A DNA stretch of 21,753 bases from a virus. Its lineage: Duplodnaviria; Heunggongvirae; Uroviricota; Caudoviricetes. The position numbers were made by a program, and so were the translations under genes. Positions 1 to 21,753 of the stretch are shown piece by piece. Within the stretch, counting starts at the first letter, position 1; each line of letters opens with the position of its first letter. The notes below the pieces were generated by a model, which saw only the letters and a list, made by a program, of their open reading frames with translations, made no database searches and had not been told where the DNA came from. Location: IMG/VR virus record IMGVR_UViG_2526164691_000017, positions 1 through 21,753 of that record. One strand, written 5' to 3'.

Positions 1-116
1 CGGGTGACGGCACCATAACCAGTCCTGCAGGATCAGGTAGCCATCAGTGGATTCAACCAGCTCCTGACGCTGGGCGCTGTAAGTGCCGTTATAGTTGCGC
101 GCTGTACTGGAAAAAC

Positions 117-1142
117 TCAGACGACTGCCCGCCGCCACGGCACGTCAACTGACCAATTACGAAAAGTTTCAAGGTTAGGATTGGGGCGATCCGACTTCAC
201 CATTCCGATTTCTTCGCCGGGTTTCAGATCGTCGTAAATAATGCCCGGCTGAATGGTAAGCTCACGTTCATTCTCCTTTCTGCCATTACCATCCGGTTCA
301 TAGCTCTGCCCGTCGCCTTTCCGGATGTACATCCCCAGAGCAGCGGCGATCCTTGCTGCAGTCAGCTCAGAATCTTCATATTCTTTCAGGGCACTGAGGC
401 GGATCAGCACACCGGACAATAAAGACGTCCCGCGCATCTGGTGCAGACGGCGAACAAATTTAAGATGCAGCATTCGCTCTGCATCCACTTCTTTGGTTTC
501 CATCTGCCGTCCGGATACGGGACGACTTTTATACACCAGATATTTTTCGGGACGCCCCCAGTCATCAACAAACACGCCCTGATTCAGCCTGTTGCTCTCA
601 TCACTGGTCATGGGAATAAAGTCCGGCTCGAGCGCCTCCAGCCAGAAATGAACACCGGCAGAAGGCGCCAGGCTGTTTATGCGCCCGGAAACCATCTGGG
701 CAAACACCTCACCATCGCGCAGCCAGGTACGCAGCATCAGACGTTCCAGCATCGGACGGGTAAACTGCCCGGTGACCTCCGGACTGACAGACCATTCACT
801 CCATCGGGTACGTATCTCCGCTGCCAGGTCACGGGCAATGGCCCCATTGCGTAATACCGGATGTGGCTCGACAATAATCCCGTTTTTCCCCACCACCCGT
901 TCTTCCAGCTTGTCAAATACACCAATGACCAGATCGTGGTTGTTATCAAGGTAACGGGCCTGCTCACGTAACGACACGGCCCCGTACTGGCTTAACTGGT
1001 CGGCAGTTCGGTTCTCCCGTCGGGCTTTGTGTGTCCGCGTCGTTTTTACGGCCTCATAAGCCTGGATCACCGCACGGGAACGCAGCCTTGCCGCTTTCCA
1101 TCCTGGTGAAAAAACGCCAATCACATCATCAAGAATTGCCAT
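117..1142 (-). CDS. Phage portal protein, apparently truncated at 341 aa (possible frameshift near 117-144)
   Basis: ORF 117..1214; likely start is the ATG at 1140-1142, overlapping the stop of the upstream gpW-like gene (TGATG). Position after large terminase and gpW matches lambda A-W-B order. 341 aa is short for a portal, and another frame stays open from about 144 to the window's left edge. Confidence 0.55.
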   Translation of the reverse strand: MAILDDVIGVFSPGWKAARLRSRAVIQAYEAVKTTRTHKARRENRTADQLSQYGAVSLREQARYLDNNHDLVIGVFDKLEERVVGKNGIIVEPHPVLRNGAIARDLAAEIRTRWSEWSVSPEVTGQFTRPMLERLMLRTWLRDGEVFAQMVSGRINSLAPSAGVHFWLEALEPDFIPMTSDESNRLNQGVFVDDWGRPEKYLVYKSRPVSGRQMETKEVDAERMLHLKFVRRLHQMRGTSLLSGVLIRLSALKEYEDSELTAARIAAALGMYIRKGDGQSYEPDGNGRKENERELTIQPGIIYDDLKPGEEIGMVKSDRPNPNLETFRNWSVDVPWRRAVV

Positions 1143-1360
1143 CAGAACCTCGCCAGCCGGTACCCGGGATGCCCCCGTCGTCGTGTAATCAGAGCCGCAA
1201 GGCGGCGCTCCCACTCCTGCCGTCCCTGCCGGATCTCAGATAAGTTTTCCATGGTCATCTGCTGACCATTAAAGGTGACGGATTTTCCGTCCAGCACCGC
1301 CATTTCAGCTTCCGTATAACGCTGAATCATGGCTTCAATATCATTCTGGTTCATAACCAT
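1142..1360 (-). CDS. gpW-like head-tail joining protein (72 aa)
   Basis: Small ORF between large terminase and portal; C-terminal RRRGxPG tail resembles lambda gpW as remembered; stop overlaps the portal start. Confidence 0.55.
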   Translation of the reverse strand: MVMNQNDIEAMIQRYTEAEMAVLDGKSVTFNGQQMTMENLSEIRQGRQEWERRLAALITRRRGHPGYRLARF

Positions 1361-1644
1361 CCTCCGGAAGTCAGCCAGGGGTTAACATCGTCAGTTACTG
1401 TTTTCTTCCGTTTTTGTTTTTTAACTAGGCGTGGATACCGGTTCCGGTGAGGATGACGGTTCGGTACTGTCCTGGACACACTCCAGCCAGGTCTCCGGCT
1501 CGCCCACTCCGGTGCATCCGGCCAGCGGATCTTTTCGTATCCATGCAGAATGACCAGAGCCTCGGCATACACCATCAGGTCGAAAAGCTTCGTTGGCACC
1601 GCGACCCGGCTTACTCCATTTCCCGTCACTGCTCCGCTCTTCAT
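1351..1644 (-). CDS. Hypothetical 97-aa basic protein between large terminase and gpW
   Basis: ORF start overlaps the terminase stop (TAATG) and its end overlaps the gpW start by 10 nt; Lys/Arg-rich centre. No homolog recognised. Confidence 0.3.
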   Translation of the reverse strand: MKSGAVTGNGVSRVAVPTKLFDLMVYAEALVILHGYEKIRWPDAPEWASRRPGWSVSRTVPNRHPHRNRYPRLVKKQKRKKTVTDDVNPWLTSGGWL

Positions 1645-3452
1645 TACGTCAGTTCGTCGTAAAACCAGCTCCCCAGCCAGTCAGGGAAATGCACATAGCC
1701 GGGACCTGGCGAGTCACGCCATAACGCGTTATTCACCCGGTCTTTCAGGGCATCCGTCTGAAGAAGCCAGAGCGGCACATCACCTGCGGCCTGCGCCCGT
1801 CGGCCCGTTCGTCCGGTGTTATCAGGGAATGTACGGGTGATCAGTTTTGCGCGCCGGATGCTGTCGCCCTTAAACAGGTAAATACGTTTACCAAGGCCAT
1901 CACGACGGCAACGACGCCAGAATTTATAGGCATTATCAGTGACCCCGTCTTCACCGCCGGAGTCCACCGCCATTGCCATCAGTCGCATTTGTTGAGAAGG
2001 GTCGGAGGCCAGCGGCCAGCTTTTATGAAAAACATCCGTCAGCAGGACATCCCAGTCTTCCGGATAGCTGGCTGGATCAATTCGCTGGCTCTCCCCGTCG
2101 CTGTCACCGCGCAATGACTGCGTGATGTTGTAACGATCAATAATCCAGCGTTCGCCACGGCTGCCATAGCCCGTTACCTGAACCACAAAACGGCGATGAC
2201 GTCCCGCCTGCACATCCACTGTCGCCACAAGGAAATTAACGCCATCCGGCACACTGCGGGAAGGAACTGGCTCTGCCCGCTGCTCAAGCAATTCACTTTT
2301 TCGTTGCTCCATGCTGGCACGAGGAAGATAAGGCAATCCCCAGTCGGTGTTGATAACCGCCCTGAGTGTTTCTTCGCTTCCTGTCGCTTCATACTCCTGT
2401 TCTGCAGTCAGTAATTTGTAAACCAGTTGCGCCCAGGTCTGATACGCAGCAGCTGGCCCTTCCATCCAGAAACTGGCGATACGGGAGCGGCGCGGTTCAC
2501 CGGAAACGTTGCCGTTACGATCAATGACCTGACCTTCACGCAACCAGACTCCTGCACTATTGAGCTCACGCTTTTTCTCCGCAGTGATAATGCCGCTGCA
2601 GTGCGGGCAAAGTAGATACGCCGCCTCACTGGCTTTAAAGGGATCCGGTTCATTACGGTAGCCGGTCATGGCATCCATGGCTGGCTGAAAATATTCACCG
2701 CAGTGCGGACATGACCAGTACCAGCGGCGGCGGTCACCACGATTGTAAAGGGAAAGAATACCAGTCGTCGGTGGCGCTTCATGAGGCGACTTACGTCGCC
2801 ATTTGCTGTCGCAGATGTCACGTCCCGGCGAGCTCTCCACCAGAGTCATCCCGGCGGACATAAATGTGGTGGTACGTTTTGAGGCCAGGGAGAAACCATC
2901 ACCCTCGCTGTCGATATTCTCCGGAAAACGGTCGTAATCGGTTAAGGCGACAAACCGGTAATCCGACGACGACATAATGTTGACCGAGGGCCAACCAATT
3001 TTAAGGAACGAGCCATCCCTGAACGTCTTATCATGGACATTATTGTCGTTACGACGTGGACTCATTCTTTTCTTTACCGCCGCACTGCTTCTGAACGTTC
3101 TGTCGAGGCGCTTTTTAGAATGCTCGCGGGCCTTATCTTCGGTCATCTGCACAACGAGCATGTCCGAAGGATCGCAAACGATGGTATAGACAATCCATCC
3201 ATCGATCAGACCAATGGTCTTCCCTGTTCGCGCAGGACCAACAAAAATCACCGCATCGTATTCACGCGATGCCAGGCAGTTCATGGGCTCAATGATGTAG
3301 GGTGTCAGTTCAGGATCCCATGGCACCGAGTTACCAGCCCCCTTGTGAACACGCATGAATTTTTTAACAGCCTCCGAAATCGGCATGCGACGTGGTGGGG
3401 AAAATCCTGCCGATATGTCCCTTCCCAAATTTCGGGCTGATGAAAAACCCAT
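1644..3452 (-). CDS. Terminase large subunit, lambda GpA family (602 aa)
   Basis: Architecture matches lambda gpA as remembered, including CPHCGE zinc-binding motif and C-terminal GYVHFP; GGAGG RBS 5-9 nt upstream of ATG at 3452; directly downstream of the Nu1-like gene. Confidence 0.85.
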   Translation of the reverse strand: MGFSSARNLGRDISAGFSPPRRMPISEAVKKFMRVHKGAGNSVPWDPELTPYIIEPMNCLASREYDAVIFVGPARTGKTIGLIDGWIVYTIVCDPSDMLVVQMTEDKAREHSKKRLDRTFRSSAAVKKRMSPRRNDNNVHDKTFRDGSFLKIGWPSVNIMSSSDYRFVALTDYDRFPENIDSEGDGFSLASKRTTTFMSAGMTLVESSPGRDICDSKWRRKSPHEAPPTTGILSLYNRGDRRRWYWSCPHCGEYFQPAMDAMTGYRNEPDPFKASEAAYLLCPHCSGIITAEKKRELNSAGVWLREGQVIDRNGNVSGEPRRSRIASFWMEGPAAAYQTWAQLVYKLLTAEQEYEATGSEETLRAVINTDWGLPYLPRASMEQRKSELLEQRAEPVPSRSVPDGVNFLVATVDVQAGRHRRFVVQVTGYGSRGERWIIDRYNITQSLRGDSDGESQRIDPASYPEDWDVLLTDVFHKSWPLASDPSQQMRLMAMAVDSGGEDGVTDNAYKFWRRCRRDGLGKRIYLFKGDSIRRAKLITRTFPDNTGRTGRRAQAAGDVPLWLLQTDALKDRVNNALWRDSPGPGYVHFPDWLGSWFYDELT

Positions 3453-3460
3453 TATTCCTC

Positions 3461-3987
3461 CTAGAGACTCTCTCCTTCCTCATCAGGAATTAATTCAGCA
3501 GCACAAGCCTCGTAGGATTTTTCCTGAAGAGTGTATCGCAGGTCATCAATGGCCTGCTGTACAACGCCGACGGCCTGAGGAGTCAGGGCGCAATCGCGTT
3601 CAAGAACATCCGGAATTGTCTCCAGAACCTGGACGACAGCCTTTCTCATGGACGAATAGACGATGACTACTTCATCAACGGGGATGAGTTTTCGCTGCTC
3701 CTTTTCCAGCTTGATCCTTTCATTTTCAGACTGGTACCAGTCCTTTCTCTCTTTCGGCTCCATACGGGATGGATCATGAACAGAGTCTGCTGCCTCATGC
3801 TTCACACTAAACAGGGCTGGCCCGACATGCTGCAGGGCGTAAACGGGGTTCCCCCTGACAGTCGCAGCCACAGGAGTGTTAGCCGCGAGGAGCCGTTTTT
3901 TACTGTGTCCCGGTGAAGCCCAAAGGCCTCAGCGATTTTAAAAACACTCCAGTAATAAGCATCACCGATCCCGCTCACATTTGACAT
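3461..3987 (-). pseudogene. Terminase small subunit (Nu1-like), frame-disrupted at a homopolymer near 3896-3901
   Basis: N-terminal part (MSNVSGIGDAYYWSVFKIAEAFGLHRDTVKN, in ORF 3802..4017) and C-terminal part (ORF 3461..3871) are in different frames. Adding one base to the T6 run (A6 on the coding strand) gives a continuous ~175-aa Nu1-like protein. GGAG RBS upstream of ATG at 3987. Confidence 0.55.
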
Positions 3988-4149
3988 AAGCAACTCCATC
4001 TGGCAGGTGAAAATCATGTTTATTTATATATTTCAATTAATTGCAAACTGGTCTAATGACAGGGAGAAAGAAATATTGTACAGGTGAAAAGAGAAATAAC
4101 TTTTAATTATCAATAAATTACCAAACATGCTGCCGCCGCCATGGAAATG

Positions 4150-4240
4150 CAAAAACTAGCCTTTTTCCGCGACGCTCCCGCCCCGTGGCAGGGGCCCCCA
4201 CCGGGAGGACCCGACAGCCTGACAGCCTGACAGCCGTGAT
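4150..4240 (-). other. cos-like site (cosN/cosB) upstream of the Nu1-like gene
   Basis: Minus strand reads GGGGCGGGAGCGTCGCGGAAAAAGGCTAGTTTTTGCATTTCC, which parallels the lambda left end GGGCGGCGACCTCGCGGGTTTTCGCTATTTATG as remembered; lies ~200 bp upstream of the Nu1 start as in lambda; adjacent 2.9-copy GACAGCCT tandem repeat at 4213..4235. Confidence 0.4.
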
Positions 4241-6129: not shown

Positions 6130-6247
6130 GATGGTGTTAACTCCAGTCATCGCTGGCACTACCACTGCTGGTTCAGAGTTAAAAAAACTATGATTTTTTT
6201 CATGATGTTACCGTAGTATGTGAGTATCCATCGAATAGATACCAAGC

Positions 6248-9574: not shown

Positions 9575-9884
9575 TCTACATTCCTTAACTTGAGCCTTTC
9601 GGCATAAATGGTTTGCATAACAGAAACGACTTCGTACTTAATTGGAGAGACTCAAAGAAGGAATAAGTGAATAACACCTGAAATGAGAACTGCTTTAGTA
9701 AACTACTTCGTATATCGTCTGTTCTTCAAACCGACGCAGTCATTAACTCATAGTTGAACATATGAAGCAATGTTTATTTTAGACATCCAGCCACCTTCAA
9801 TCCTATCAAAAAAGTAGTTTTCTCCAGGAACGTGTGTATGGTGCACCAGGTTATCAGTATTAAGGAGTTTTTCTGTCCCCTAAA

Positions 9885-10081
9885 ATGACAGGAATTGTCA
9901 AAAACTTTGACTACAAAAGCAGCAAAGGTCTTATATTCCCATCCGATGGCGTATCGATGCCCAGCTTCACGTTTCAGCTCTCAATCTTCGAGATGCAGAA
10001 GAAATTACCACAGGATTACGCGTGGAATTTTGCTGGATAAATGGTTCGCGTGGACCTTCAACTGCCAATGTTTATCCCGGG
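9885..10081 (+). pseudogene. cspF: cspF-like cold-shock gene, frame-disrupted near 9950 and lacking its normal stop
   Basis: From ATG 9885 the frame gives [22 protein letters not shown] (CspF/CspH-like N-terminus) then stops after 55 codons; a second frame gives [42 protein letters not shown] (CspF-like C-terminus) and then runs on as ORF 10022..10411. A missing C at GGC(C)GT would explain the shift. Confidence 0.5.
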
Positions 10082-13035: not shown

Positions 13036-13758
13036 AGCCTGCTTCTCCTTGCCTTTCGGCACGTAAGAGGCTAACCTACATATGTCTAGCATGAAATTGG
13101 CCTCAGATTAATGTTAAGCGTCTTGCAGGACGCGTAATGTTAACTGGGGCTTTTCTCTATCTGCCGTTGGTGTTCATGCCCGAGGCAGATAGCCTCAAGC
13201 ACCCGCAGCCATTCTACTTAACTACCGTTACCTCGCCAATGTGAAATCAGTCAGAAAGGCGATCCATAAGAACAATAGCAAGACAATAAATCGCCATTAC
13301 AGCCGTAATAGCCAGCGCACATTTGAGAACCAGCACCACAACCTCCTGTATTGGACGTAGACCAGTCCTGATGAATATGAGGCTGTCTCGTCAGTGATTC
13401 AATACAACTATTGGGTATAGTTTCTCTGATTTTTTCTGTGGAAATGGGGCACAACCACTAGTCACCACCAGCACTTCTTTTAATACGCAAAGTCCGACAC
13501 AAGCTAACCTTCTAGTCCGCTTTGAGCGAAAAACAGCCATAATTTAGTGCCACGTATATAATGATAGAGCTATTCAAGCTAGCAATTCACATGTAAAAAT
13601 TCAGAGGGTAGATGCACATAGTTATAAATGTTGGCTCCATCGACAAATTGCGGTCTCAAGTACATTTTAGACTGGCCCCCTGAATCTCCAGACAACCAGT
13701 ATCACTTAAATAAGTGATAGTCTTAATACTAGTTTTTAGACTAGTCATTGGAGAACAG

Positions 13759-14124
13759 ATGATTGATGTCTTAGGGCCGGAGAAACGCAGACGGCGTACC
13801 ACACAGGAAAAGATCGCAATTGTTCAGCAGAGCTTTGAACCGGGGATGACGGTCTCCCTCGTTGCCCGGCAACATGGTGTAGCAGCCAGCCAGTTATTTC
13901 TCTGGCGTAAGCAATACCAGGAAGGAAGTCTTACCGCTGTCGCCGCCGGAGAACAGGTTGTTCCTGCCTCTGAACTTGCTGCCGCCATGAAGCAGATTAA
14001 AGAACTCCAGCGCCTGCTCGGCAAGAAAACGATGGAAAATGAACTCCTCAAAGAAGCCGTTGAATATGGACGGGCAAAAAAGTGGATAGCGCACGCGCCC
14101 TTATTGCCCGGGGATGGGGAGTAA
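13759..14124 (+). CDS. insC: IS2 transposase OrfA (InsC), 121 aa
   Basis: [56 protein letters not shown]: HTH plus leucine-zipper OrfA; A6G slippery heptamer (GGGCAAAAAAGTGG near 14068-14081) for the -1 frameshift into insD. Confidence 0.9.
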
Positions 14125-14987
14125 GCTTAGTCAGCCGTTGTCTCCGGGTGTCGCGTGCGCAGTTGCACGTCATTCTCAGACGAACCGATGACTGGATGGA
14201 TAGCCGCCGCAGTCGTCACACTGATGATACGGATGTGCTTCTCCGTATACACCATGTTATCGGAGAGCTGCCCACGTATGGTTATCGTCGGGTATGGGCG
14301 CTGCTTCGCAGACAGGCAGAACTTGATGGTATGCCTGCGATCAATGCCAAACGTGTTTACCGGATCATGCGCCAGAATGCGCTGTTGCTTGAGCGAAAAC
14401 CTGCTGTACCGCCATCGAAACGGGCACATACAGGCAGAGTGGCCGTGAAAGAAAGCAATCAGCGATGGTGCTCTGACGGGTTCGAGTTCTGCTGTGATAA
14501 CGGAGAGAGACTGCGTGTCACGTTCGCGCTGGACTGCTGTGATCGTGAGGCACTGCACTGGGCGGTGACTACCGGCGGTTTCAACAGTGAAACAGTACAG
14601 GACGTCATGCTGGGAGCGGTGGAACGCCGCTTCGGCAACGATCTTCCGTCGTCTCCAGTGGAGTGGCTGACGGATAATGGTTCATGCTACCGGGCTAATG
14701 AAACACGCCAGTTCGCCCGGATGTTGGGACTTGAACCGAAGAACACGGCGGTGCGGAGTCCGGAGAGTAACGGAATAGCAGAGAGCTTCGTGAAAACGAT
14801 AAAGCGTGACTACATCAGTATCATGCCCAAACCAGACGGGTTAACGGCAGCAAAGAACCTTGCAGAGGCGTTCGAGCATTATAACGAATGGCATCCGCAT
14901 AGTGCGCTGGGTTATCGCTCGCCACGGGAATATCTGCGGCAGCGGGCTTGTAATGGGTTAAGTGATAACAGATGTCTGGAAATATAG
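14082..14987 (+). CDS. insD: IS2 transposase OrfB (InsD), DDE catalytic domain, 301 aa
   Basis: ORF track; overlaps insC in the -1 frame; IS3-family integrase-core protein with the DDE triad (the final Glu in the [10 protein letters not shown] segment). Confidence 0.9.
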
Positions 14988-15045
14988 GGGCAAATCCACA
15001 TTTATTAATGTTGCCCCCGCATTAACAAATCATCAAGGTGACGAC

Positions 15046-21517: not shown

Positions 21518-21753
21518 ATGAGTAAAGTCTTTATTTGCGCCGCTATTCCTGACGAACTGGCAACAAGGGAAGAAGGCGCTGTGGCTGTAGCCACAGCCAT
21601 TGAAGCTGGCGACGAACGCCGTGCTCGAGCAAAATTTCACTGGCAATTCCTGGAACATTATCCGGCTGCTCAGGACTGCGCTTATAAATTTATTGTCTGC
21701 GAGGATAAACCTGGCATACCCCGCCTTGCCCTCGATTCATGGGATGCTGAATA
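21518..21753 (+). CDS. ydfE: YdfE-like protein, N-terminal part (runs off the window's right edge)
   Basis: ATG at 21518; MSKVFICAAIPDELATREEGAVAVATAIEAGDERRARAKFHWQFLEHYPAAQDCAYKFIVCEDKPGIPRLALDSWDAE with no stop before the window ends; follows ydfD as in K-12 Qin. Confidence 0.6.
   Translation, partial: MSKVFICAAIPDELATREEGAVAVATAIEAGDERRARAKFHWQFLEHYPAAQDCAYKFIVCEDKPGIPRLALDSWDAE

Follow-up and report, generated by a model that had tools for sequence, protein, structure and literature searches.

A split small terminase gene in a lambdoid prophage of Escherichia coli: one gene, one missing adenine

The window analyzed here, a stretch of 21,753 nucleotides from IMG/VR record IMGVR_UViG_2526164691_000017, carries the small terminase gene (TerS) of a lambdoid prophage. 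The prophage occupies the Qin locus, and its E. coli host is a close relative of strain DEC9B. The gene is split between two reading frames by the contraction of an adenine tract by one nucleotide. The protein family is known and the lesion is an ordinary homopolymer break. As the sequence is written, and with conventional translation, no functional TerS is encoded. The absence of one A more probably reflects a fault of the record than a true mutation of the strain. The preliminary description of this DNA had placed the choice between decay of the prophage and sequence error, with reads needed to decide, and this choice stands.

The split gene and its repair

Two overlapping ORFs on the minus strand, in different frames, occupy the place of the gene. 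The longest N-terminal ORF, counted from the ATG at 4017, has 71 aa (3802-4017). In public annotations, its start is taken at MSNVSG (ATG at 3987), which gives a product of 61 aa instead of 71 (3802-3987), in which the first 30 residues are native and the other 31 are out of frame. The C-terminal ORF (3461-3871) begins with a GTG and has 136 aa. It corresponds to native residues 40-175, without helices 2 and 3 of the HTH; its start sits inside the HTH wing and no Shine-Dalgarno sequence is seen before it. With the public start, the whole gene spans positions 3461-3987 of the minus strand, the stop codon being at 3461-3463.

At the junction, the coding strand reads GT-AAAAAA-CGG. This run of six A (A6), read as T6 on the plus strand at 3896-3901, is the frameshift site and covers codons V29-K30-N31. 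Frame is lost at codon 31, where the native T28 V29 K30 K31 R32 gives way in the window to V29 K30 N31 G32. The window has no single continuous ORF of about 165-190 aa. Such an ORF appears only after addition of one A to the run, and it then encodes 175 aa from MSNVSG or 185 aa from the upstream ATG. The repaired 175-aa protein is exactly WP_001389340.1, a 'DUF1441 family protein' annotated as a product in DEC9B, and its verbatim sequence occurs in at least 1000 contigs of public data. The gene is the same as in DEC9B and in F2_407_2_2 except for the A run, and the tract has seven A (A7) in every close relative examined.

Family assignment and relationship with lambda gpNu1

Repaired TerS matches the Pfam family DUF1441 (PF07278) with 151.8 bits (1.6e-44) over profile positions 3-144, the gathering cut-off being 35.1, and PHROG 141, 'terminase small subunit', at 7.9e-65 over residues 7-174. 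Taken alone, the C-terminal ORF still scores 127.5 bits (5.2e-37) against DUF1441, over profile positions 28-144. In the AlphaFold model of TerS (pLDDT 82), the N-domain has a helix-helix-beta-hairpin organization. The N-terminus is thereby predicted to be a winged HTH of the MerR-like type, a feature shared with the lambda gpNu1 family, and the break at codon 31 lies within the recognition helix of this domain. The main claims of the preliminary description are borne out by these data: a single small terminase gene is split at the run at 3896-3901 with its two ORFs in different frames, the HTH is in the N-terminal part, and a protein of about 175 aa is recovered once a single base is added; this protein turns out to be identical to a known one.

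The same description had called the protein Nu1-like. This probably holds at the level of remote homology and fails at the level of the Pfam family. Repaired TerS has no match to Pfam Phage_Nu1 (PF07471) at E<=10, in the same scan where lambda Nu1 is recovered at 2.5e-100. The lambda Nu1 query sequence was verified as Phage_Nu1 by this very score. On the other hand, TerS matches PHROG 57, the family of Nu1, at 1e-9, and Nu1 matches PHROG 141 at 5.6e-8, both across most of the length; for comparison, lambda Nu1 scores 1.3e-76 against its own PHROG 57. Because these profile matches are reciprocal, TerS, a member of DUF1441/PHROG 141 that stands outside Pfam Phage_Nu1, may be considered as remotely homologous to Nu1. 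Alignment of the TerS family to Nu1 with hhalign involved the HTH alone (E = 0.046). Further likenesses to lambda gpNu1 are a similar size (175 aa for TerS and 181 aa for gpNu1), the N-terminal MerR-type winged HTH of both proteins, and the position of the gene, which begins some 190-200 nt after the cohesive end and directly precedes a gpA-type large terminase. Searches of TerS against solved structures, with the single sequence or with profiles, returned nothing significant, and TerS had no match in NCBIfam. In the literature on DUF1441, incidental mentions only were found.

One interrupted gene rather than two

The occurrence of two ORFs in different frames may be read in another way, with two genuine and separately translated genes, one encoding a small HTH protein and the other a protein made of the DUF1441 C-domain. 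Gene callers do output both pieces as separate products in carriers of A6. The homologues tell a different story. The alignment comprised 40 diverse full-length homologues of 165-192 aa, with 44-92% identity to its reference sequence, and all of them are continuous; it took in sequences from Klebsiella, Salmonella, Serratia, Providencia, Vibrio and Marinobacter. Conservation runs through the junction, with an invariant Arg four residues ahead of it and the motif R-x-T-V-K/R-K/R-R, and the Pfam domain bridges the two pieces. Moreover, the 61-residue first product ends with 31 out-of-frame residues, and this tail has relatives solely among carriers of the same lesion. As for the second ORF, its start within the HTH wing and its lack of a Shine-Dalgarno sequence also argue against an independent gene. 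Because the homologues are continuous across the junction and the out-of-frame tail is unique to carriers of the lesion, the two-frame layout is the disruption of one gene, a lesion and not a design, as had been proposed. The reading with two genes is effectively refuted by the homologue alignment, and its probability is negligible.

The packaging module and the probable cos end

The environment of the gene is that of a packaging module. From the stop codon of TerS, the ATG of the large terminase gene (TerL) at 3452 is found 8 nt downstream. TerL is of the gpA type and matches GpA_ATPase (3.3e-80) and GpA_nuclease (6.4e-73). The gene order is: cos end, TerS, gpA-type TerL, W-like adaptor, portal. 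Phages cdtI and Tritos, both with an annotated small-terminase gene at this place, have 98.6-98.7% DNA identity with the window over 1-4100. In phage cdtI, which was aligned, the tract is A7 and TerS is intact, with 179 aa (orf1, BAF63334.1). The order of the module is the same in cdtI, in Tritos, around WP_001389340.1 and in the window. The A6 of the window, by which the ORF is split, is opposed to A7 both in phage cdtI and in the close E. coli relatives examined.

The cos end probably lies at 4172-4183 on the minus strand, as read from the start point of a phage record alone: base 1 of the phage cdtI record (GGGCGGGAGCGT...) aligns at 4183. This segment is 196 nt upstream of the TerS ATG. 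GGGCGGGAGCGT and the lambda cohesive end, GGGCGGCGACCT, have their first six bases in common, and the lambda cosN 12-mer itself was not found within the window. Lambda Nu1 begins at nucleotide 191 of the lambda genome; therefore the geometry of cos and TerS is the same in the window.

In the lambda gpNu1 family, the protein is characterized by binding to repeated cosB sites beside cosN and by stimulation of gpA. By analogy with lambda gpNu1, a role may be imagined for each part of intact TerS. The N-terminal winged HTH would bind the cos region, about 200 nt upstream of the gene. The helical middle part would be responsible for oligomerization. Finally, TerS would recruit the gpA-type TerL encoded 8 nt downstream.

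Differences from the DEC9B chromosome

The closest sequence to the window is the finished chromosome of E. coli DEC9B, which covers it end to end, including the same IS2 insertion. Over 1651-21753, the two sequences differ at only 4 positions. DEC9B has A7 at the TerS tract and has intact TerS (175 aa), TerL (699 aa) and portal (502 aa). They were compared base by base, and a complex site at 15-17 was re-read as AA->A and AAA->AA. At the left end of the window, eight single-base indels are found, at 15, 17, 145, 155, 1426, 1494/5, 1582 and 1644, several of them outside any homopolymer. They break the portal gene and the 3' end of TerL.

The TerL gene (1351-3452, minus strand) encodes 699 aa in relatives. 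Here, a 602-aa ORF (1644-3452) is followed by scrambled frames, as a result of four private indels: an added T at 1644, an added G at 1582, a lost C at 1494/1495 and an added T at 1426. They fall within 220 bp, with no substitution among them. None of these four indels occurs in any of 1905 complete genomes, the best identity over 1400-1670 being 98.5%. The breakage of TerL at 1426-1644 was absent from the preliminary description. The portal gene (1-1142, minus strand; 502 aa in relatives) is cut by the edge of the window. It has gained an A at 155 and a T at 145, and has twice lost a single A at 15-17. The sum of these four indels is zero; the frame is shifted and a stop codon occurs at 117. 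They are found in neither of the genomes aligned (DEC9B and H9Ecoli), and over window positions 1-1700 no genome matches above 98.9%.

The substitutions in the same region are of another nature. Eleven of them, at 420-1337 in the portal and W-like genes, are all synonymous third-position changes; ten of these, at 420-927, are in the portal gene. In 226 genomes, a patch of the portal gene at 700-960 is matched at 99.6% by portal alleles of other prophages. An interpretation of the portal substitutions as sequencing noise was dropped in view of their synonymous character and of this match. They represent a real allele or a mosaic, recombinant sequence.

Eleven differences from DEC9B were counted as private to the window, namely the eight left-end indels, the A6 of TerS, and two substitutions, at 3346 and 21726. 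The former substitution, G to T on the plus strand, produces P36H in TerL and is 550 nt away from the TerS indel. This substitution and the A6 run are the only two mismatches of window 3300-4200 with its top complete-genome matches. The difference at 21726 is a single T/C change inside an exonuclease gene. The private set thus contains 9 indels and 2 substitutions, and 10 of its 11 members fall within the leftmost 3.9 kb. In E. coli mutation-accumulation data, 10-20% of spontaneous mutations are indels. With this assumption, the probability of at least 9 indels among 11 mutations is 5e-8 to 2e-5. For the spatial clustering, the probability is 3e-7.

At the TerS site, the exact 70-mer of the window is absent from all 768 complete E. 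coli genomes carrying the segment. The listed close relatives have 71 nt where the window has 70, and therefore A7. The exact-match test was validated at position 6181, where it readily recovered the natural A7 allele, with 417 exact matches. No exact 48-mer at the A6 site was found in genome, viral or metagenome contig collections. Of the exact products of the window ORFs, neither the 602-aa TerL, nor the 365-aa portal, nor a 97-aa ORF, nor the 71/65-aa products of TerS are on public record.

DEC9B has two places matching the TerS region, and the packaging/head module is present more than once in these genomes. A chimera with the second module copy of DEC9B was envisaged as the source of A6 and dropped, the best match of the 70-mer in DEC9B being 98.6%, with no exact A6 copy. 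DEC9B has ten runs of at least 7 bases, of which only the TerS tract and the run at 6181 differ from the window. The latter (6181-6187, upstream of or within ynfN) is A7 in the window and A8 in DEC9B. A second homopolymer error was considered for it and dropped, since A7 is the K-12 allele, found exactly in 417 of 1478 complete genomes, and thus a common natural polymorphism.

Error in the record or mutation in the cell

Clustered and indel-dominated private differences are the signature of a low-quality sequence stretch. Because the TerS A6 is of the same class and in the same region as the other private indels, it is grouped with the probable errors. In this explanation, the A7 tract encoding V29-K30-K31 would have been written as A6 in the record, giving a 61-aa stub and an unexpressed C-terminal remnant, and the TerS indel would belong to the private set of the left 3.9 kb, within the packaging/head module. 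The finished DEC9B chromosome, with the same IS2 insertion, A7 and intact TerS, TerL and portal, also argues for an error, for which the balance of the evidence speaks to a reasonable degree. An earlier proposal of homopolymer errors does not account for the remaining indels, most of which are outside long homopolymers and rather resemble a region of poor sequence quality at the left edge of the window.

Several observations nevertheless weigh against an error. The dense indel cluster is 2.25 kb away from the TerS site, and the closest other private difference is 550 nt away. The record looks clean outside the left 1.65 kb, and the nine other runs of at least 7 bases match DEC9B, except that at 6181. 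The synonymous portal substitutions correspond to a real allele and not to noise. Finally, the same A6 allele is genuine elsewhere, and several of its carriers have intact TerL and portal genes.

A real slipped-strand deletion, from A7 to A6, in the strain itself, within a decaying and packaging-defective prophage, is the other explanation to be weighed. A6 is indeed documented as a natural allele in other lineages and samples. The prophage already bears real lesions in common with DEC9B, the IS2 insertion and the cspF frameshift. Besides, the natural differences from DEC9B (the portal patch and 6181) indicate a different strain or a recombinant, in which new mutations are possible. Against such a deletion, the private differences are dominated by indels and clustered, unlike the mutational spectrum, with four private TerL indels in 220 bp and no substitution. 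The eleven substitutions in the portal and W-like genes are all synonymous, which points to purifying selection until very recently, and the nearest relative is intact. A real deletion is the less probable explanation, though still a plausible one.

A6 alleles in other samples

The exact 61-aa product is found in one public contig, FBVG01000106.1 (GCA_900016125.1), from a different lineage, and it is A6 at the DNA level. In a second allele background, A6 is found on 13 contigs. Ten places from independent samples were examined there, 3 in NCBI assemblies and 7 in assemblies made from separate public read runs, and A6 was confirmed in the DNA of all ten. Besides the window, at least 11 samples carry A6, for instance GCA_020556645.1, GCA_019368265.1, and Logan SRR10286133 and ERR4563319. 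The carrier contig JACWBW010000004.1 belongs to the first of these assemblies. Altogether, the frameshift product is known in nine protein variants, which belong to at least seven different sequence backgrounds. Because of these recurrent variants and of A6 in other samples, the A7 tract is considered a natural slippage hot spot.

The other A6 alleles resemble that of the window in that the same contraction, at the same A7 tract, produces the same pair of products, of 61 aa and 114/136 aa. They differ from it by their backgrounds, 1-4 substitutions apart in the gene, and by the neighboring genes: several A6 carriers keep TerL (699 aa) and portal (502 aa) intact, and the window does not. In one A6 carrier (L010), TerL has only 471 aa and its C-terminus matches tail-fibre domains (Collar, Phage_fiber). 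There, a tail-fibre assembly gene and a resolvase (invertase) gene come next after TerL; this prophage is more deeply deleted.

Recoding at the A6 run

The A6 allele forms the heptamer A_AAA_AAC in phase, the codons being GTA AAA AAC (V-K-N in the zero frame). A -1 slip on this heptamer leads into the native frame and to a 175-aa TerS with the replacement K31N. It may be asked whether recoding would keep A6 partly functional, either through a -1 ribosomal slip, giving full-length TerS with K31N, or through RNA polymerase stuttering, giving a wild-type message. The heptamer is in the correct phase and the shift enters the native frame. Moreover, the TerL and portal genes are retained intact in several A6 carriers. 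A_AAA_AAC is also a proven -1 frameshift motif, belonging to an IS cluster without an established stimulator; motifs tested without stimulator gave 2.1-10 times a background of 0.055% (PMC4066793). The yield to be expected is well below 1%, and the substituted residue, K31N, would sit in the recognition helix. In addition, the two-frame layout is not conserved, the relatives having A7 and a continuous ORF. K and R vary at the tract codons in distant homologues, which indicates that the tract itself is not maintained. No stimulatory RNA fold was found downstream, an 81-nt segment folding no better than shuffled sequences (z = -0.78). Because the layout is not conserved, the tract is not maintained and no downstream fold is seen, a designed frameshift is very unlikely. 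A partly functional A6 sustained by recoding is likewise very unlikely.

A comparison may be made with the insA-insB' site of IS1. This A6C site has the same heptamer, A_AAA_AAC, in the same phase as in the A6 allele (PMC4066793). In IS1, the two-frame layout is a conserved design, whereas the A6 of TerS is a rare allele of a normally continuous gene. In several E. coli lineages, the A7->A6 contraction recurs and happens to make an in-phase heptamer of the IS1 type. Some low-level leakiness may occur in true A6 carriers. A more ambitious idea would be that the A7 tract, in the codons of the recognition helix, repeatedly gives 'off' alleles within packaging modules that are otherwise intact, and that these alleles are not null, a trickle of full-length TerS being supplied by -1 frameshifting at the heptamer or by transcriptional stuttering. 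Such a trickle would make A6 an accidental and reversible dimmer on prophage packaging; this idea is very improbable.

Consequences for the prophage

If A6 is real, TerS is lost, and with genuine TerL and portal indels the loss extends to the whole packaging module. The prophage may then excise, replicate and lyse its host on induction, without cos cutting or head filling. It would be one more prophage losing its terminase. Should A6 be an error, the prophage has an intact set of packaging genes, like DEC9B and phage cdtI. The site is then no argument against inducibility, and the prophage should not be called defective on present evidence. The inducibility of the prophage is not readable from the TerS site, the importance of which is little beyond annotation.

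Other lesions of the prophage

The cspF gene (9873-10075, plus strand) carries a frameshift that is identical in finished DEC9B, where PGAP flags the gene as frameshifted and incomplete. Since the lesion is also in this finished chromosome, cspF is a real, inherited pseudogene. The short portal, cspF and TerS had been proposed as joint support for a common interpretation. This grouping does not stand, the lesions being different in kind: that of cspF is inherited and those of the portal gene are private indels. In fact, similar-looking frameshifts of three origins coexist in the window, with inheritance for cspF, natural polymorphism for 6181, and private indels of doubtful quality for the portal gene, TerL and probably TerS. 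Taking them together as a sign of decay is not justified.

Finally, an IS2 insertion is found at about 13700-15030 (transposase CDS at 13759-14987), with hokD on one side and a DUF4209 gene on the other. DEC9B has the insertion at the same place, and many related prophages lack it.
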